This document shows positions 2,114 through 32,102 of a stretch of 64,000 nt of DNA, piece by piece (positions within the stretch are counted from its first letter, which is position 1; every line of letters starts with the position of its first letter). Source of the stretch: Octopus vulgaris (taxonomy: Eukaryota); contig OX597819.1 in the NCBI GenBank assembly GCA_951406725.2, positions 113,770,001 through 113,834,000 of the forward strand, in the 5' to 3' direction. The notes under the pieces were generated by a model. That model was not told where the DNA came from. It did not search any database and saw nothing but the letters and a program-made list of their open reading frames with translations. The translations under genes were made by a program, and so were the position numbers.

Positions 2114-5016
2114 TCATCATCATCATCGTTTAGCGTCCGTTTTCCATGCTAGCATGGGTTGGACGGTTCTACTGGGGTCTGTGAAGCCAGAAGGCTTCAT
2201 CAGGCCCAGTCAAATCTGGCAGTGTTTCTACGGCTGGATGCCCTTCCTAACGCCAACCACTCCGTGAGTGTAGTGGGTGCTTTTTACGTGCCACCCGCAC
2301 TGGTGCCAGACAGAGCTGGCAAACGGCCACGAACGGATGGTGCTTTTTATGTGCCACCGGCACGAGGGCCAGGCGAGGCTGGCAACGGACACGAAACGGG
2401 GCAGTGCTGGCAACGGTCGCGAAACGGAAAGTTCTCTTACATGCCACCGGCACTGGTAACACATCTGCAATTTCCATTGATCGATTTCCATTGATCGATT
2501 TCGATTCTGATCGTCACTTGCCTCAACGGGTCTTCACAAGCAGAGTTTTGACATGCCACCGGCACTGGTAGCACATCCGCAATTTCCATTGATCGATTTC
2601 GATTCTGATCCTCACTTGCCTCATCACGTCTTCACAAGTAGAGTTTTGTGTCCCAAGAAGGGAAGGTATGCATACGTAGGCTGGCTCCATCCCATGTAGA
2701 AGGCCACGGGTTATGGACTCACTTGTCCTGCCGGGTCTTCTCGCGCACAGCACACTTCCAGAGGTCTCGGTCTCTAGTCATTTCCTCAGTGAGACCTAAA
2801 GTTCGAAGGTCGTGCTTCACCACCTCGTCCCAGGTTTTCCTGGGTCTGCCTCTTCCACAGGTTCCCTCAACCGCTAGGGTGTGGCACTTTTGCACACAAC
2901 TATCTTCATCCATTCTCGCCACATGACCATACCAGCGCAAACGTCTCTCTTGCACACCACAACTGATGCTTCTTAGGTCCAGCTTTTCTCTCAAGGTACT
3001 TACACTCTGCCGAGTGTGAGTACCGGCATTACACATCCATCGGAGCATACTGGCTTCATTTCTAGCGAGCTTACGCATATCCTCAGCAGTCACGGCCCAT
3101 GTTTCACTGCCATGTAGCATGGCTGTTCGTACACACGCATCATACAGTCTGCCTTTCACTCTGTGCGAGAGGCCTTTTGTCACCAGCAGAGGTAAGAGCT
3201 CTCTGAACTTTGCCCAAGCTATTCTTACTCTAGCAGTTACACTTTCAGCACACCCGCCCCCGCTGCTGACTTGGTCACCTAGGTAACGGAAACTATCAAC
3301 TATTTCTAGTTTTTCTCCCTGGAAAGTGACGGAAGTTGGTCTCAGAGCATTTTCAGTGTTTATTGTTCCTGAGCATCTGCCACATACAAAAACCATCTTC
3401 CTAGTTAGCCTTCCTTTGACATTGCTGCATCTCTTATGTGTCCATAGCTTACACTTGGTGCATCTTATAGAGTTTCTACCTACACCTTTTCTACAGATCG
3501 AGCAGGGCCATCTACCTGAAGGTGTTTGTGATTTGTCTACCTTCCTACTGATTACGACTTTGGTTTTAGCTAGATTGACTCTGAGGCCCTTCGATTCTAA
3601 TCCTTGTTTCCACACCTGAAACTTCTCCTCCAGTTCTGATAGCGACTCAGCAATTAGAGCAAGGTCATCAGCATAGAGGAGCTCCCAAGGGCATCCTGTC
3701 TTGAATTCCTCCGTTATTGCCTGGAGGACTATGATAAATAGGAGGGGGCTGAGTACTGAGCCTTGGTGGACTCCTACCTCTACCCGGAATTCTTCACTGT
3801 ACACATTTCCAACCCTCACCCTACTAGCGGCGTCCCTGTACATGGCCCGCACAGCTCTCACTAACCATTCATCTATCCCTAGTTTCCTCATTGCCCACCA
3901 GATAAGGGATCGGGGGACCCTGTCGAAGGCTTTCTCCATGTCAACAAAAGCCAGGTACAGGGGCTTATCTTTGGCTAGGTATTTCTCCTGCAGCTGCCTT
4001 ACCAGGAATATAGCATCAGTAGTACTTTTCCCTGGCACAAACCCAAACTGCATCTCATCTAAACTAACTCTCTCTCTAATTAGTTGGGCTATGACCCTCT
4101 CCGTAACCTTCATCACCTGGTCCAACAGCTTGATACCTCTGTAGTTATTTGTATCTAGGGCATCACCTTTACCTTTGTAGCAGTTGACTATTATACTGCT
4201 ACACCAGTCATTGGGTATGACCCCTTTGTGTATCACCTGATTAACTATACGGGTGACTAGGCTATAGCCGACACTACCAGACATTTTGAGCATCTCTGCA
4301 GTGATTCCTGATGGGCCTGGGGCTTTCCCTGTCTTCATGCTTCTAATTGCCTTAGCTACCACGGAACTATCAACTCGGATAGCTGGTCCCTCTGTTGGGT
4401 CAACATTCGGCAGACTCTCTTTATCCCATTCATTTTCTTCATTCAGCAACCTTTCATAGTGGCATCTCCAAACCTCTCTCTTTGCATCCTCATTTAGCGC
4501 AAGTGAACCATCTTCCATGCGAACACACTTCTCTCCTACCACATCACGATTCTCTCTCACACACTGTCTTGCAACACGAAACACCTCCAGTCTTTGGTCC
4601 TCACGGCGCAGAACATTGGCAAATTTTTTCTTATCTGCTTCCCCTCTGGCTAAATAAACCTGTCTCCTAGCTTCTCTTTTGGCAGTCTGATACAATCCCC
4701 TGCTACCCCCATTTTTCCAGACCTTCCAAGCCTGTCTCTTTTCTCTAATAGCCCTGTCTACAATATTGTTCCACCACCACGTTATTCTAGGTCGAGAGGG
4801 GACTTTGCACCAGCCACAGATCTGGTCAGTGGCTCTCAGCAGGTTGTCCCTTAGAAACGTCCAGCTGTCTTCTACCCACTGTGATGCTCTATCCCCTTCT
4901 ACTTCGTCAGAGGCTTCAAGTAATATGTCCCTAAATCTCTGTCCATTTGCAGGATCTTTAAGCTTCCAGATCCTTCTTCTCCATATTTGTCGTCTTCTGG
5001 TTGTCCTCCTAGTCCT
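2114..5016 (-). mobile_element. RTE-clade LINE, 5'-truncated (APE endonuclease missing), with uninterrupted RT ORF, 3' UTR and (GAT)n tail
   Basis: Frame open from 5016 to the stop at 2719. RT motifs KAPGPSG, NYRGIKLL, QFGF, FVDMEKAFD, GVHQGSVLSP, YADD, FRYLG; RTE C-terminus RLRWYGHV..RGRPRKTW; tail at about 2114-2127. Confidence 0.95.
2719..4695 (-). CDS. RTE reverse transcriptase ORF (partial; frame extends to 5016) with an internal PHD-type zinc finger
   Basis: 658-aa ORF in the track with RT motifs; C4HC3 motif at 3504-3373. Confidence 0.9.
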   Translation of the reverse strand: MYQTAKREARRQVYLARGEADKKKFANVLRREDQRLEVFRVARQCVRENRDVVGEKCVRMEDGSLALNEDAKREVWRCHYERLLNEENEWDKESLPNVDPTEGPAIRVDSSVVAKAIRSMKTGKAPGPSGITAEMLKMSGSVGYSLVTRIVNQVIHKGVIPNDWCSSIIVNCYKGKGDALDTNNYRGIKLLDQVMKVTERVIAQLIRERVSLDEMQFGFVPGKSTTDAIFLVRQLQEKYLAKDKPLYLAFVDMEKAFDRVPRSLIWWAMRKLGIDEWLVRAVRAMYRDAASRVRVGNVYSEEFRVEVGVHQGSVLSPLLFIIVLQAITEEFKTGCPWELLYADDLALIAESLSELEEKFQVWKQGLESKGLRVNLAKTKVVISRKVDKSQTPSGRWPCSICRKGVGRNSIRCTKCKLWTHKRCSNVKGRLTRKMVFVCGRCSGTINTENALRPTSVTFQGEKLEIVDSFRYLGDQVSSGGGCAESVTARVRIAWAKFRELLPLLVTKGLSHRVKGRLYDACVRTAMLHGSETWAVTAEDMRKLARNEASMLRWMCNAGTHTRQSVSTLREKLDLRSISCGVQERRLRWYGHVARMDEDSCVQKCHTLAVEGTCGRGRPRKTWDEVVKHDLRTLGLTEEMTRDRDLWKCAVREKTRQDK

Positions 5017-5339
5017 ATATATTATATATATGTTTGTAATATGTATGTGTATTTATGTGTGTGGGTGGGTGGATGTATGAATGCGTATGTGTATGTATGT
5101 ATACACATACATACATTTCATATCATTTCATTATTTTGTTTGTTTGATCCTATTTTTTGTTTACCCAATCATGCTAATGTAAACCTCACCCCCACCCCTC
5201 ATCAATATCATATCGATTTGGTAACTTTATCCTTGTAATGTTTCCTCAATTCGTTGTTCTTGAGGCAGGAAAAACATCATCATCATCATCATCATCACCT
5301 AATTATTTTTATTATTATCATTATTATTATTATTATTCC

Positions 5340-6825
5340 TTCGTAACACAGTGTAGGTAAAAATGCACCAGAGTCTTTACTCATCTGTCAAGTCACAACA
5401 AGGACTTAAGACAGATAATACTTTCCTTAAGATTGGCGCTGTGTCCAATAAGGCTACTTTTTGGAAGACATCAATCCTGCATGGGATTTCCAGTTGCCTT
5501 AAGAAGTTTTGAAGTTTCAATGGAATTGAGCCCAACGCTCCGATCACCACTGGTATCACTTTTACATTACCCTCTCTCACATTCCATACAGTCTTGCTAG
5601 TTCCACTTTCAATTCAGAGTACTTGGTGATTTTTTCAATCTCTTTACTCACAACATTTATTCCATTTGCTATAGCTACATCAATGACCTGACAGTATTTG
5701 TCTCTCTTACTCAATATGACAATATCTGGCTGACAGTGTTCGATTACATAATCCGACTGAAAATCATAGTCCCCGAGTATCACTACATTTCCATCCTCCT
5801 GCATAACTTTACTTGGTAGATGCTCATAACAGTTCTCTGTTACTTCATATTGGTATTTACAGCATAAGACCCAATGAAGATACACACACATTTTATCATG
5901 GTGGCATTTGTATTCTTTTTGTGCAAGACTCTCACATTCACTTACCAAGTGGGTCATATTTTCCACACTCTTTCCACAGAGTCTGCATTTCTGGGTATCA
6001 GAAGTTTTATAGATGTTATACTTCACTGAATTGGTATAGCGAGAGCTTGGTCTTGTGCAGCAATGATCAGGCTTTCGGTGATATGCTTCAAATCCCCTTG
6101 CTCAAGCCATGCTCACGATGCTGTATTATCCTTAACGTGCTATGTATTCCTTTCAAACTCTTCATGCATTCTCATTTCAAGAAGGTCTTCTTTTCTCTTC
6201 TCCTCAGCTCTTTGGTTAAACTCTTCCTTGCCCATCATTTCATCTGCATTTACACCCATATCTTTCGCCACGTATTGCTGCAGGTCTTCATCACTATTTA
6301 TCAAATACTCGGCAAGTGTTCTCCTTTCACTCCTTATACAATGGTCTATACTAATCAGTCCTCAGCCAACATTCTTTCTTTTCAAATACAGTCTGTTTAC
6401 GTTTGCTTTAGAGTGTAGCACTCCATGCAGCTTCATCAACTTTCTCATCCTCCTATCCAGTGTTGATATTTCCTCCTCAGGCCATTTGAGGATGGATGCA
6501 CTATATCTGACCACCACAACTGCCCAGATATTCATTGCAGTAATCACATTTTTGGCATTCAGGTTGGATTTCAACACAATCTTCAACCTTTTTTGATACA
6601 TCTCACTGACCTTGACTTTCACTTTTCTGCAATGAAATCCAGCTCCAAAATCCCTAAATATCTATATCCACTACCGTTGGGTTCACCCATAGTCTCTCCT
6701 GGGATGTTTTCTTCCTTCTTTTCATATTAAGTACTGGACATTCAGTAATTCCAAATTCCATACTAATGTCCCTACCACACTTCTGGACTGCTTTGGTTAA
6801 AAAATCTGTTTTTCAGATTTCTCAA
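5340..6825 (-). mobile_element. R4/Dong-type non-LTR retrotransposon remnant with restriction-like endonuclease (RLE)
   Basis: Frameshifted pieces: post-RT region (RLYLKRK..G), CCHC knuckle CRLCGKSVENMTHLVSEC, RLE motifs PDIV..IDVAI..EKITKY..VIPVVIGALG; flanked by (ATT)n. Confidence 0.85.
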
Positions 6826-8481: not shown

Positions 8482-9265
8482 CCACACACAAAAGTTATTT
8501 TTCCTGTTAACCTTTCTTTGATACTGCGGCACCTTTTATGTGTCCATAGCTTACACTGGGTACATCTAATGGAGTTTCTACCTTGGCCTTTTCTATAGAT
8601 TGAGCAGGGCCATCTACCAGAAGAGATCTGTGATTTTTCTGCCTTCCTAACTACAAAGACTTTGGTTTTTGCCAGGTTAACTCTAAAGCCCTTCGATTCT
8701 AGACCTTGATTCCACATCTGAGACTTCTTCTCTAGTTCAGGTAGTGATTTAGCTGTAAGAACAAGGTCATTAGCATAGAGGAGCTCCAAGGGCAGCTTGT
8801 CTTAAATTCCTCCATTATTTCCTGGAGGACTATGATGAATAAGAGGGGGCTGAGGACTGATCCTTGGCGAACCCCCTACTTGTACCCTGAATTCTTCACT
8901 ATACTTTTTGCCAAATGCTCACCTTACTGACAGCATCTCTGTACATGACTTGTACAGCTCTCACTAACCACTCATCTATACCTAGTTTCTGCATTGACCA
9001 CCGGATAAGGAATTGGGAGGGGGGGGGTCAAAGGCTTTCTCCATGTCAACAAAAACCAAGTACAGAGGTTTATTTTTGGCTAGGTATTTCTCCTGCAGCT
9101 GTCTTACCAGAAATATAGCATCAGTGGTGCTTCTCCCTAGCACACACCCAAACTGCATCTCATCTAAACTAACTCTCTCCCTAATTATCTGGGCTATGAC
9201 CCTCTCCGCAACTTTCATCATCTGATACAACAATTTGATACTTCTGTAATTATTTCTGTCAAAGA
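8482..9265 (-). mobile_element. Degenerate RTE RT fragment, including the PHD finger
   Basis: ORFs 8451-8789 and 8982-9389 match the RT ORF, with frameshifts. Confidence 0.9.
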
Positions 9266-15623: not shown

Positions 15624-15884
15624 TACATATATATATGCAGATACATATTGACCCTTTATTTTATCTTTTATTTGTTTCAGTCATTAGATTGCGGTCATGC
15701 TGGGGCACCACTTTGAAGAATTTAACTCTTCTTTTTAAGCCTGGTACTTATTCTATCAGTCTCTTTTGCATTTAAACTGGCCATACCAAGTCCAAATACT
15801 TATTTTATGTTTGAACTGGCTGGATCAGGCCTCTCACACCTACTCTACAATATCATTCTAAAAATAAACAATAACATTATTGAA

Positions 15885-16403
15885 TACAGTTCTATATTTA
15901 AGAGATGAGTAATTATGTTCTTTATTTACATTTGATGGATATTTGTCCTCATCTTGTTTGTCACTAACACAACGTTTCGGCTGATATACCCTCCAGCCTT
16001 TATCAGGTGTCTTGGGGGAAATTTCGAACCTGGGGTTCTCATTCCTAAGGTATTTTTCGATGTTATTATTATTATCATTATTATTCAGGTCACTGCCTGG
16101 AATCGAACTAGGAATCTTGGGGTTAGTAGCCTGCACTCTTAACCACTACGCCATATGTTCATGGACATATGGTGTTGTGGTTAAGAGCGCGGGCTACTAA
16201 CTCCAAGATTCCAAGTTCGATTCCAAGCAGTGACCTGAACAACAACAATAATAATAATAATGATAACATTGAAAAATACCTTAGGAATGAGAACCCAGGT
16301 TCGAAATTTCCCCAAGACAGCTGATGAAGGCCAAAACATTATGTTAGCGACAAACAAGATGAGGACAAATATCTGTCAAATGTAAATAATGTAAATAATG
16401 TAA
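15885..16403. mobile_element. Head-to-head pair of tRNA-headed, hammerhead-bearing SINE-like elements with one 12-bp target-site duplication (TSD)
   Basis: Inverted copies centred at 16161/16162; AACATTATTGAA at 15873-15884 and 16404-16415; A box and B box in each head; hammerhead motif at 16011-15966. Confidence 0.8.
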
Positions 16404-16640
16404 AACATTATTGAAATTTTGAAGCTATAAGATAATGAATGATTAACTGAAAACAATGTGAATATGTAAGAATTACATTTGACAGAGTAACCTGAGTGTT
16501 AAAGGGTTATTCATAAAGTATGCAGTATTTTAGATCCATTTCAGCTGATCTTACCAGTTGGTTTTGCACAGAATATTAGGTAATTATGTTACTGCTTAAG
16601 ACCATGCTCCTTATAAATATATATATATTTTTATCTCTTA

Positions 16641-21257: not shown

Positions 21258-22370
21258 AGCACCATAGTCAATTGCTACAAAGGTAAAGATGATGCATTAG
21301 ATACGAATAATTACAGAGGTATCAAATTGTTGGATCAGGTGACGAAAGTTGCGGAGAGGGTCATAGCCCAGCTAAATAGGAAGATAGTTTTGATGAGATG
21401 CAGTTTGGGTTTGTGCTAGGGAGAAGCACTACTGATTCTATATTTCTGGTAAGACAGCTGTAGGAGAAATACCTAGCCAAAGATAAACCTCTGTACTTGG
21501 CTTTCGTTGACATGGAGAAAACCTTTGACAGGTTCCCCCAATTCCTTATCTGGTGGTCAATGCAGAAACTAGGGATAGATGAGTGGTTAGTGAGAGCTGT
21601 ACAAGCCATGTACAGGGATGCTGTCAGTAAATTGAGGGTTGGCAATGAGTATAGTGAAAAATTCCAGGTAGTTGCAGGGGTCCACCAAGATTCAGTCCTC
21701 AGCCCCTTCTTATTCATCAAAGTCCTCCAGGCAGTAACAGAAGAATTCAAGACTGGCTGCCTCTGGGAGCTCCTCTATGCTGGTGACTTGCTCTTATAGC
21801 TGAGTCACTATCAGAAATAGAGGAGAAGTTTCAGGTGTGGAAGCAAGGTCTAGAATTGAAGAGCCTTAGAGTCAATCTAGCAAAAACCAAATTCTTAGTA
21901 AGTAGGAAGGCAGAAAACCTTCAGGTAGACAGCCCTGCTCAATATGTAGAAAAGGCGTAGGTAGAAACTCTATTAGATGTACCCGGTGTAAGAGGTGCAG
22001 CAATATCAAAGGACAACTAACCGGGAAGATAGTTTTTGTGTGGTAGATGCACAGAGGCAAAAACATTGAAAATGTGCCGAAAACAGCTTCTGTTACATGC
22101 TTGGGGGAAAAACTAGAAGTAGTTGATAACTTCCATTACCTAGGTGACCAAGTCAGTAGTGGGGGTGGATGTCCTGAGAGCGTAGCTGCTAGAATAAGAA
22201 TAACCTGGGAAAAGTTCAGAGAGCTCCTACCTCTGTTGTAACAAAGGGCTTCTCAGAGTGAAAGGTAGACTGTATGATGCATGTGTGTGAATTGCCATGT
22301 TACACAGCAGTGAAACATAGGCTGTGACTGCTGAGGACATGCGTAAGCTTACAAGAAATGAAGCTAGTTT
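21258..22370 (+). mobile_element. Degenerate RTE RT fragment
   Basis: NCYKGKDDALDTNNYRGIKLL, FVDMEKTFD, GEKLEVVDNFHYLGD, with stops and frameshifts. Confidence 0.9.
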
Positions 22371-22399
22371 GGATTTGTAGCAGTGTGAATACACTGGAA

Positions 22400-23275: not shown

Positions 23276-24105
23276 TCTATGTTTGACTTTTGCTTTATAT
23301 TTGTACAAGTTGGCTCCAAGTCTCGCCCAGAGACCTCAAGAGACAACTATTTGGAAGTTTGTGATGTTGTTATGACTAGTGTGCCATATATTTGGTTTTG
23401 TATTTAGTGTTGTACTAGTGAATCTCAAAAAAAAAAAAAACGAAAATTATGTTTGTTTTAAAACTTGAGATTACATAGAAAGTATTTTGCGTAGGATATG
23501 AGCAGTTCTCATGAGCACTCTCTTTTGAATTTCTACCATTTTTGGGTTTCCTAGTATCTGAGATAGGTAGCGATCAGCCCCTTTTGCTATCATTCCCAGG
23601 GCACCTATGACAATAGGTATTGTTTTAGTCTTCAGGTTCCACATTTTGCTGATTTCTATTTCAAGATCTTTATATTTGCTCAGTTTTTGGTAGGTCTTGA
23701 CAGATACGTTTATATCGATTGGGACAGTCATATCAATGAGGAGGCATGTTCTTTGTTTGAAGTCTTTCAATATGATGTCTGGCCTATTTGCATCTATCTT
23801 TCTTTCAGTTTGAATGGGGAAGTTCCAGAGGAGTGAGATGTGGTCATTTTCAAGCACTGGGGGTGGTTTGTGTTCCCACCGGTTTTTTTCATTGGGCAAA
23901 TCCAGGTTTTTGCAGATTACCCAGTGAATATATTGTGCAGCTCTATCATGCCTGTTGAGATACTCTATAGGCGCTAGAAGATTGCACTTGGAGACAACAT
24001 GATCAATGGTTTCATTTTGTTGTTGACATGACATGTTGGGCTACTGCCGTTCTTTAATATGTTGGCCTGGTAGTTCCTTGTTGGTAGGCATTGATCTTGA
24101 GCTGC
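23276..24105 (-). mobile_element. R4/Dong-type LINE, 5'-truncated, family A
   Basis: ORF 23471-24034 with RHD, LWNF, RPDII, IDMTVP, KLSKYKDL, IPIVIGALG; (ATT)n on both sides. Confidence 0.9.
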
Positions 24106-24149: not shown

Positions 24150-24973
24150 TTTTTCTTCTTCTTTCAAATTTGCTTCCATTTCTTGCCGAGTGTCTTCCCG
24201 ACTCCTAGGGCAAAGAAACTCATAGTATACATTGGTAGGCCCTTAAACTAAACTCACTCGTTCGTTCATTTTTTTTTTTTTTATAGAAATAAAAGTAATA
24301 GTTCTCACATCGACAATGCTCTTCTCAATACGTATGATGTACCAGTTAAGACAATCTTTTGCACTTCTTGCAGGGATGGTAAGCCAGGGATCATTCTCAT
24401 ATAATTTTCGGTTCCCTTCTTGATCATTCCTAGTGCTCCTACGATCACTGGTATTGTAACCGCCTTGAGATGCCACATTTTCTCAATTTCAATGAGCAGG
24501 TCTTTATATTTTCTGAGCTTGTCAAATTCTTTTGCCGAGATATTATGATCACAGGGAATGCTTATGTCGATCAATAAGCAAACTTTATTGTTTTGGTCTT
24601 TCACAACAATATCCGGTTTATTGGCTTTGATGGTTCGGTCTGTATGTACTGGAAAGTCCCACAGAATCGTTACACTTTCTCCTTCAGTTACAGCTTCAGG
24701 GTGGTGATTATACCACTTGTCGGCAGTTTTGATATTGTAATGCCGACTTATTAGCCAGTGTAGATATTGGCCAACTCTGTCATGTCTTAATTTATTCTCC
24801 ACTGGTGCTAAGACTTTACATCCAGAGATTAGGTGGTCCACTGTTTCAATCATGTCGTTGCAGAATCGGCATTTTGGGTCGACATGATTGAAACAGTGGA
24901 CCACCTAATCTCTGGATGTAAAGTCTTAGCACCAGTGGAGAATAAATTAAGACATGACAGAGTTGGCCAATAT
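24150..24973 (-). mobile_element. R4/Dong-type LINE, 5'-truncated, family B, with a 94-bp inverted duplication at the 5' junction
   Basis: ORF 24305-24904 (CRFC..ETVDHLISGC, RHD, KPDIV, KLRKYKDL, IPVIVGALG); inverted arms 24764-24857 and 24880-24973. Confidence 0.92.
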
Positions 24974-26443: not shown

Positions 26444-26845
26444 ATCATTGAAAGAATTATTTCACCCTTTTAAATAATTTTCATGTTTTTATTTTAGAGT
26501 CTTTTTACTATTTTTCCTAATTTTTTTCCCCATACAATTTCTCCTTCCTTGAAAGAATTATTTCACCCATTTAAATATTTTTCATCTTTTTATTTTAGTC
26601 TTTTTACTATTTTTCCTCATTTTTTTCTCATACAATTTCTCCTTCATTGAAAGAATTATTTCACCCTTTTATATATTTTTCATATTTTTATTTTAGAGCC
26701 TTTTTACTATTTTTCCTCATTTTTTCCCCATACAATTTCTCCTTCCTTGAAAGAATTATTTCACCCATTTAAATATTTTTCATCTTTTTATTTTAGATTC
26801 TTTTTACCATTTCTCCTCATTTTTCTCTCATACAATTTCTCCTTC
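26444..26845. repeat. Minisatellite of 4 units of ~100 bp, with ABAB higher-order pattern
   Basis: ttgaaagaattatttcaccc recurs at 26448, 26549, 26647 and 26747. Confidence 0.92.
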
Positions 26846-27339
26846 TCTTGCTTACTTCCAATCTATCTTTATTAGAAACTCCAGTGATTGAAAAGTTTGG
26901 AAAATAATAATGGAAAACATAACACTCACGTATCTGCTGCATGTATTTCCTCCAGTCAGCTAAATAACAAATGTGTCACTTCACTTTGATATGGAAACTC
27001 TTTGCTGCTGCCCGTCATCCTACTGCTGCTACAGTTACTGCTGTTATTATCAGTGGTGGTAGTTGGAGTAGTGTTGTAAAAAGTTAGTGGTGGTGGTTAT
27101 AACCCTGGTGACAATGATGATGAGGATGGTGGTTATGTGTTGTTGTTGATAATATGCTGTTGGTGTGGTCATGGTAATGTTGTTGATATCATTAGCAGAC
27201 CAACTTGGTGCAACCCCAGATTAGAGCTGATCTGTCACACACATAGCACAAGGATAACTTTGTATAGTTTAGGACACAATGCACATTCCAACATGCAGTG
27301 GTTAATCATAGGGGAAGCAGCACAACAGTCAAAACTTAT

Positions 27340-31764: not shown

Positions 31765-32010
31765 AGGCATATGGCGTAGTGGTTAAGAACGTGGGCTACT
31801 AACCCCAAGATTTCAAGTTTGATTCCAGGCAGTGACCTGAATAATAATAATAATACTAATAACATCATCAAAAAATACCATAAGAATGAGAACCCAGGTT
31901 CAAAATCTTCCCAAGACACCTGATGAAGGCTGGAGGGTATATATTAGCCGAAATGTGTTAACAACAAACAAGATGAGGACAAATATCCGTCAAATGTAAA
32001 TAATGTAAAT
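31765..32010 (+). mobile_element. Third copy of the tRNA-headed hammerhead SINE-like element
   Basis: GGCATATGGCGTAGTGGTTAAG head; gacac-CTGATGA-A-GGCTG..TAGCC-GAAA at 31915-31959. Confidence 0.8.
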
Positions 32011-32102
32011 ATTGTTATTACTGTTGCTGTTGTTATTGTTATTACTTTGTTTTAAATGAGCTTTTCCAAGTCACACCTAGAGACTGTCGGTGTTATATGT
32101 TA

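Follow-up and report, generated by a model that had tools for sequence, protein, structure and literature searches.

In the present study, a repeat that occurs three times in a 64-kb window of the Octopus vulgaris genome (the window being the whole stretch of 64,000 nucleotides that was analysed) was traced to its source. We identify this 274-nt unit, with practical certainty, as the pseudo-LTR of an autonomous Penelope-like element (PLE) of the Poseidon type. The end of the open reading frame (ORF), a tRNA-like head, an (AAT)n spacer, a hammerhead and the PLE tail form one contiguous unit. The ribozyme and the insertion pattern of this element are ordinary; its predicted promoter is unusual.

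Results

The preliminary description of the window had placed three copies of a repeat of about 250 bp, laid out as A and B boxes, (AAT)n and a minimal hammerhead. Both the places and the layout were borne out, the copies lying at 16160-15885 (minus strand), 16163-16403 (plus) and 31765 to about 32018 (plus), with an identity of 81-87%. The length was given too short; the 30 best genomic matches define a unit of 274 nt with a sharp 3' end. Copy A (15885..16160, minus strand, 95.6% identical to the family consensus) is a complete pseudo-LTR with a 33-nt tail that copy B lacks. This tail (15885..15917, minus), read after PMC11167929 as the segment between two reverse-transcription start sites, encodes SSSLKYRTV of the ORF where units stand in tandem. 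Also on the minus strand, copy A holds the tRNA-like head (16086..16160), with the A box at 16143..16153 (unit positions 8-18) and the B box at 16100..16108 (unit positions 53-61), both located by alignment to host tRNAs. The (AAT)n spacer (16063..16085), recognised from its sequence, varies in length among family copies. An ATG at 16040..16042, which starts the 832-aa ORF in tandem units, has the hammerhead downstream and in frame, an arrangement that is also found in the relative P0014. The minimal type I hammerhead itself spans 15966..16011, with its predicted cut at 15971/15970.

Copy B (16163..16403, plus strand) is the inverted partner arm without tail and copy C (31765..32018, plus) is a solo, tail-less copy beginning at +1, both delimited by alignment. 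The three lesions listed before were found again, namely G8A at 16001 in copy A, the collapse of stem II in copy B, whose hammerhead remnant (16316..16345, plus) has lost 18 nt through stem II and GAAAC, and a 3-nt deletion at the cut site in copy C (hammerhead at 31915..31959, plus). Copies A and B meet in a palindromic head-to-head junction (16151..16172) where both arms begin at the tRNA-like +1, and this junction type recurs at other loci. The 12-mer AACATTATTGAA stands in the window at 15873 and 16404 only, as the identical left (15873..15884, plus) and right (16404..16415, plus) target-site duplications. The inverted pair was therefore inserted in a single event, as had been proposed, with one 12-bp duplication around both arms. 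The variable repeat that precedes the tail (unit positions about 227-247; window 16372-16403) has a 9-nt unit, so that its length changes leave the ORF frame intact.

Other repeats are also present in the window. A 777-residue open frame with reverse transcriptase at 2719-5052 (minus), with partial copies near 8482-9255 and 21264-22371, is presumably an RTE-like LINE, to judge by its motifs. The 3' LINE fragments with a restriction-like endonuclease at 5577-6101, 23471-24040 and 24305-24904 (minus) we take to be R2/Dong-R4-like. An inverted repeat inside a LINE fragment (24764-24973) has 103-nt arms, 96% complementary, and a 4-nt spacer, and about four tandem copies of a unit of about 100 bp lie at 26445-26850.

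There are 1218 exact matches to the 39-nt hammerhead core in the genome searched (2.8 Gb, 227 contigs), and 3894 when the loop may vary; the reversed control gave 0, and these numbers are far above chance expectation. The median divergence from the consensus is 5% at non-CpG sites (88 arms). A set of 60 loci, 30 obtained by similarity and 30 by the hammerhead motif (the window's own locus included and one locus present twice), consists of 32 head-to-head pairs, 27 solo copies and 1 other. No tandem array of the short unit occurs among these 60 loci, copies being dispersed, solo or inverted. Flanking duplications scoring 8 or more were found at 21 of the 60 loci versus 0-5 in 20 shuffles, and target duplications of 9-14 bp surround head-to-head pairs with one tail. 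Among 81 head-to-head junctions, both 3' ends were available in 57, and the tail of about 30 nt is on exactly one arm in 50 of these. The PLE arrangement in PMC8557442 (inverted arm, tail at one end, target duplication) matches, and the partial tandem pseudo-LTR, the inverted 5'-truncated arm, the 30-40 bp tail at one end and the variable target-site duplication are all present. The 3' end of the repeat is the PLE tail, not a LINE-derived or simple-repeat tail. The copy at L142 (C1 about 59.63 Mb) is far more diverged; it has the head and the spacer, its hammerhead loop is a variant one, and it perhaps represents an older subfamily.

The link to a protein-coding element was first seen at three loci (L121, L124 and L139), where an endonuclease ORF ends about 30 nt ahead of the head. 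When loci were picked by the 3' end of this ORF, the unit stood directly after the stop in 29 of 30, and the remaining one retains five letters of the head. When they were picked with the endonuclease peptide of a relative (five of these overlap earlier loci), 28 of 30 continue into the head, and the other two are a locus that is cut short and one interrupted there by a different SINE; no sister family without the head appeared among 30 loci of the 150 scored. The full-length locus L236 is composed of the inverted arm, a partial pseudo-LTR with tail, the ORF and a pseudo-LTR with tail, with one duplication around the whole, and in L136, L237 and L268 the head and the 3' part flank an insert. 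The reverse transcriptase matches RVT_1 with E values of 5.8e-8 (L236) and 1.4e-10 (L237). The consensus ORF (832 aa, reverse transcriptase plus endonuclease) begins ahead of the hammerhead, at an ATG in unit position 119, and the tail reads on in frame into this ORF. The autonomous element with reverse transcriptase and GIY-YIG endonuclease that the preliminary description had proposed to look for was thus found, its 832-aa ORF accompanied by the pseudo-LTR. Mobilisation by a PLE rather than a LINE was rightly proposed; the repeat is not a separate non-autonomous family, the whole unit, head included, being inside an autonomous element.

The full-length relative P0014 is 54% identical over the endonuclease query and begins with the same hammerhead-encoded peptide pattern; the likeness of the L029 frame to P0014 was read from each sequence separately. 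Relatives carry PF00078 and PF26215, and three others (P0001, P0002 and P0004) are 60-70% identical. Pfam PF01541 gave no match to the endonuclease, and its motif VYSIPCSCG-YKGET was read from the sequences instead. The endonuclease has CxC between the GIY/YIG-type motifs and a conserved His, and the linker between reverse transcriptase and endonuclease has no Cys cluster (CX2-5CxxC). Since CxC in the endonuclease core and a linker without zinc finger are criteria in PMC8557442 (Craig 2021), the element was assigned to Penelope/Poseidon on these motif criteria. Metagenome scans for DNA of relatives were empty at first and then gave four at 32-43%, none with an A box match; these are too distant for the head to be dated from them.

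Several other partners were rejected. Candidates with a Pfam GIY-YIG match were (TA)n-associated PLE families, and the end of the repeat is not common to them. At L065 a tail stands alone next to the remains of an old GIY-YIG sequence; the family reached from there proved unrelated, and its hammerhead is not the same. A Dong-R4-like LINE was rejected as the mobilising partner, its ends being insertions into the (AAT)n spacer. A young PLE family (L061-L068) has a 781-aa reverse transcriptase plus GIY-YIG frame after a 479-aa frame; several of its copies are 98-99.5% identical, and it terminates at (TA)n, its hammerhead-like end being atypical. In an old PLE-derived family of about 950 bp (L081-L110, about 75% identical), a remnant of the endonuclease survives, and stem II of its hammerhead-like motif is very long. 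LINE 3' ends and an element of about 600 bp have also landed in the (AAT)n spacer (L126, L136, L137, L143, L145, L146, L154, L237, L260, L268 and L278), and the spacer sequence fits the ATT preference described for the Anolis PLE endonuclease.

The Pol III-type boxes of the preliminary description were supported. The head of copy A aligns to host tRNAs with a score of 67, against 30.3 ± 4.9 and a maximum of 44 in 300 shuffles, and the A box, perfect at 8-18, and the B box at 53-61 occupy their tRNA positions, between the ORF stop and the hammerhead. Its derivation from tRNA-Ile(AAT) found no support. The pseudo-anticodon is ACT, the best isotypes of the 13 sampled types score alike (Glu 67, Arg 60.5, Asn 60), and no Ile gene was in the sample, a search pattern covering Ile and Asn tRNA genes having given 82 matches, all of Asn type. 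A cluster of more than 40 tRNA-Asn-type matches was seen at 52.85-52.93 Mb of C20 (G000). ARAGORN called no tRNA in the window or in short stretches, and Rfam also gave no match there; the cloverleaf stems are degraded, and both boxes are intact and are retained in solo copies. Other tRNA-type repeats in the loci retrieved have heads 64-73% similar to this one, and on sequence grounds capture of the head from a SINE would be as likely as from a tRNA gene. A hairpin of -9.6 kcal/mol straddles +1 (-17..+10). The initial 40 nt of the head carry deletions in 22 of 60 ORF-linked arms per 20-nt bin, versus 0-2 in most ORF bins of this sample, which is biased to an intact ORF, and several of these deletions have their left breakpoints at -1/0. 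The hairpin, the fold-back junctions and the head deletions indicate that the reverse transcriptase is error-prone at the head anyway.

The start of the copies was examined by counting exact CpG-free 20-mers, which gave 744 at -200, 848 at -28 and 5148 at +29. Copy number is thus nearly flat across 170 nt and then changes sixfold across 57 nt at the head; exact-match rates in ORF-linked loci were 20, 12 and 7 of 30 in a biased sample, and correcting for them would enlarge the step. Short copies outnumber ORF-linked copies about 6:1. Of 30 loci picked by the head motif, most begin a few letters from +1; two extend to -20 and -26, and a single one far into the ORF. Among arms anchored at the hammerhead, 17 stop at the head and 3 pass, whereas 2 stop and 4 pass among those anchored at the ORF start (P 0.028, 26 arms in all; 23 per set never reach the head, and 4 and 1 end inside it), so that the stop at the head is not a fixed property of the sequence. 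Many copies begin at -4..+3 next to unrelated or distant partner sequence, without fold-back, by a crude junction classifier whose 'start 0' class mixes true +1 starts, opposite-strand fold-backs and a few false matches; the figures given above come from the 20-mer counts, the head-motif loci and the anchored arms, and do not depend on this classifier. No fixed difference was found between 62/59 arms of ORF-bearing loci and 26/42 arms of short-only loci; over the 39 sites listed, the lowest P before correction was 0.008.

The sense consensus of 2,655 nt, covered by 23-84 copies, contains 13 runs of three T (T3), none of four (T4) and 29 runs of four or more A. By codon resampling, the absence of T4 has P values of 0.012, 0.004 and 0.022 when codons are drawn from control usages, and 0.033 when they are drawn from the element's own; a first test on 618 codons had given 0.14 (own-codon permutation) and 0.023. 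Other PLE ORFs of the genome have 3.5-4.8 T4 per kb, one of six control ORFs is also free of T4, and G4 runs are likewise absent from the unit (P 0.14). The T4 test is therefore regarded as modest evidence. At least four T follow within 30 nt in 49 of 60 host tRNA genes, exactly four in 16, and it is plausible that T4 is a terminator in this host. In three unstranded RNA-seq runs of organism B, of which about 6 in 100 of each run was read and in which reads were cut at (AAT)n, the element is present on both strands, head-to-head joints included, and depth rises only about 2-fold at the head. These runs gave no defined molecule starts or ends, and there were no circular-RNA joints among the matches listed.

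The hammerhead is a minimal PLE-type motif with CUGANGA and GAAA cores, stems I and II, a palindromic loopless helix III and an NUH site. Its type I core and palindromic stem III were correctly described; stem II, given as 5 bp, is able to take a sixth pair, G-U. The suggested Rfam search gave no hammerhead match in the window or in short stretches. A core no better conserved than its flanks had been named as evidence against the ribozyme. This was indeed found (0.059 versus 0.033-0.040 substitutions per non-CpG site, 105 arms), yet it is no refutation, because inserted copies are dead and their core decays neutrally, like the flanks. A variant is common at one core position alone, the free N7 (16 of 88 arms); it is compatible with selection in the source copies, but is also a conservative Asp-to-Glu change. 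The P0014 peptide is compatible, at the peptide level, with an altered stem II. Deletions cluster around the cut at unit positions 183-198 (17-19 of 88 arms per counting interval versus mostly 1-5), and a 3-nt loss at the cut region is also present in 213 of 3918 RNA reads; the cluster may be a scar of cutting or may come from slippage in a micro-repeat. No 5'-end peak was found at the cut (8 of 75, P 0.48). Free-energy folding of monomer and dimer did not give the active fold, which is expected for this motif and hence uninformative. Most likely the hammerhead is weak as a ribozyme and assisted by protein or by dimer formation, its self-cleavage being a prediction; a head-to-head pair has its hammerheads on opposite strands and so cannot supply the dimer within one transcript. 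In five internally deleted copies (L337, L346, L347, L358 and L364) the ORF is kept for its first 410-550 nt or so and is then joined to a 3' portion of the pseudo-LTR; three of them resume at unit positions 190-193, adjoining the hammerhead cut.

Discussion

The hammerhead, tail, inversion and duplication of this element are known biology, having been published for Anolis Poseidon and other PLEs. In the Poseidon of Anolis carolinensis (PAc), as described in PMC11167929, both DNA strands are nicked and extended at AT-rich sites with an ATT preference, and the ribozyme is protein-assisted and dispensable for insertion. As here, PAc has a single ORF with reverse transcriptase and C-terminal GIY-YIG that begins within the pseudo-LTR, its hammerhead overlaps the ORF start with the cut downstream of the ATG, its tail is bounded by two internal priming sites, and no RNA-seq ends are reported at the cut. 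The accessible text on PAc mentions no tRNA-like box, whereas the pseudo-LTR here is taken up by the tRNA-type head and (AAT)n, and most copies begin at +1. The metazoan PLE hammerheads of PMC4209133 (Cervera and de la Pena 2014) are alike in the short helix I, the extra base before stem II, G10.1-C11.1 and the loopless palindromic helix III, and they too are mostly solo motifs, with pairs on opposite strands 100-700 bp apart. The motif itself is no different; this host and a tRNA head are absent from the accessible part of that report.

In our reading, Pol III probably starts at the head, with the A and B boxes as a predicted internal promoter; the RNA 5' end would thereby be fixed at about -7 to +1. 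Whether Pol III makes the whole coding RNA is more doubtful, and we offer it as a possibility only. The same caution applies to the full proposal of an autonomous PLE made end to end by Pol III from a captured tRNA promoter, its ORF free of T4 and its leader giving rise to a SINE family, which is put forward tentatively. PLE promoters have been located in the upstream pseudo-LTR (PMC6765202, PMC2377424); the known ones are TATA-less, internal and LINE-like (PMC2377424), which counts against Pol III.

By analogy with Anolis Poseidon, the encoded protein would nick both target strands, and reverse transcription would begin inside the ORF at two sites, about 125-156 nt from its start, so that only one of the two arms would have a tail. 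Where the first pseudo-LTR of the transcript is primed, just the leader of about 280 nt would be copied, up to the RNA 5' end, and such leader-only cDNAs could account for the SINE-like copies, which number in the thousands and begin sharply at the tRNA-like head. Where a later pseudo-LTR is primed, ORF-bearing, variably truncated copies would result. Pairs such as 15885-16403 may have been formed by two cDNAs, or by snap-back, joined via the palindrome at +1. Hammerhead cutting would separate the start codon from the ORF, most templates presumably remaining uncut.

The strongest alternative accepts the same autonomous PLE, but has it transcribed by Pol II, the head being an old SINE relic and the 5' ends arising by stalling or snap-back of the reverse transcriptase at the +1 hairpin. 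We consider this unlikely, although the hairpin at -17..+10, perfect palindromic junctions such as that in the window, the concentration of deletions in the head with several left breakpoints at -1/0, and RNA-seq (unstranded) without RNA ends would all suit it. Stalling would leave unexplained the many starts at -4..+3 beside an unrelated or distant partner with no fold-back. One would expect a structural stop to fall at the stem's 3' foot (+10) and not in its loop, and long cDNAs mostly go past the site. Furthermore, the boxes are intact although the cloverleaf stems are not, and the unit lacks T4.

A self-propagating Pol III SINE that acquired the PLE 3' end and hammerhead and was mobilised in trans appears improbable. 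The excess of short copies, about 6:1 over ORF-linked ones and SINE-like in look, and both boxes being kept in solo copies speak for such an independent lineage. It is opposed by the head belonging to the autonomous unit and by the variants common to short-only and ORF-linked arms, between which no fixed difference was found. In addition, the Anolis protein needs RNA beyond the priming sites (PMC11167929), and this stretch may be missing from solo copies that end at the tail. A retrozyme or SM-alpha-like unit, whose multimers would self-cleave, circularise and be inserted by a LINE, is hardly credible and is largely refuted by the link to the PLE ORF: hammerhead and Pol III boxes do occur together in SINE-like repeats of Schistosoma (PMC6765202) and Dong-R4-like LINE ends adjoin (AAT)n at several loci, but these ends are insertions into the spacer (L136, L237 and L268), the 60 loci hold no short-unit arrays, and copies end at the PLE tail and the tRNA +1, not at the cut site.

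To return to a Pol III start within an autonomous PLE, the combination has partial likenesses in other systems. R2 may be compared in that it is a retroelement that encodes protein, has a ribozyme close to the 5' end and is not transcribed by Pol II (its RNA is a Pol I co-transcript); it differs in its HDV ribozyme, rDNA target and restriction-like endonuclease. Cassandra, Helenus and Ajax (TRIMp3; PMC10886601) also have a Pol III promoter derived from a small RNA within the terminal repeat; these are non-autonomous LTR elements whose autonomous partners are expected to use Pol II, whereas here the boxes are in a protein-coding autonomous element. In Schistosoma SM-alpha (PMC6765202) a Pol III promoter is likewise followed by a hammerhead, but the repeats are tandem, with a canonical hammerhead and no ORF of their own, in contrast to the minimal hammerhead in a PLE pseudo-LTR described here. 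Among the papers listed by full-text literature searches, none described a PLE with a tRNA-type promoter or this family, which the Zenodo library, Repbase, Dfam or subscription papers may contain. The report on an octopus in PMC13282606 gives 190 Penelope-like families and many unclassified SINEs, and its supplement does not mention hammerheads; the accessible parts of PMC8967140 and PMC7229834 contain nothing further on this family.

Conclusion

SINEs normally parasitise LINEs, and Pol III promoters in terminal repeats have been reported for non-autonomous elements only. If our reading is true, a PLE with its own tRNA promoter would be a direct route to the birth of SINE-like families, and part of the 'unclassified SINE' annotation in such genomes would be PLE-derived. 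If the whole ORF is made by Pol III, this would be a natural, translated, uncapped Pol III message under ribozyme control. The thousands of short copies would be a fossil map of the 5' end of the element's RNA, which would make PLE promoters and the function of the hammerhead testable.
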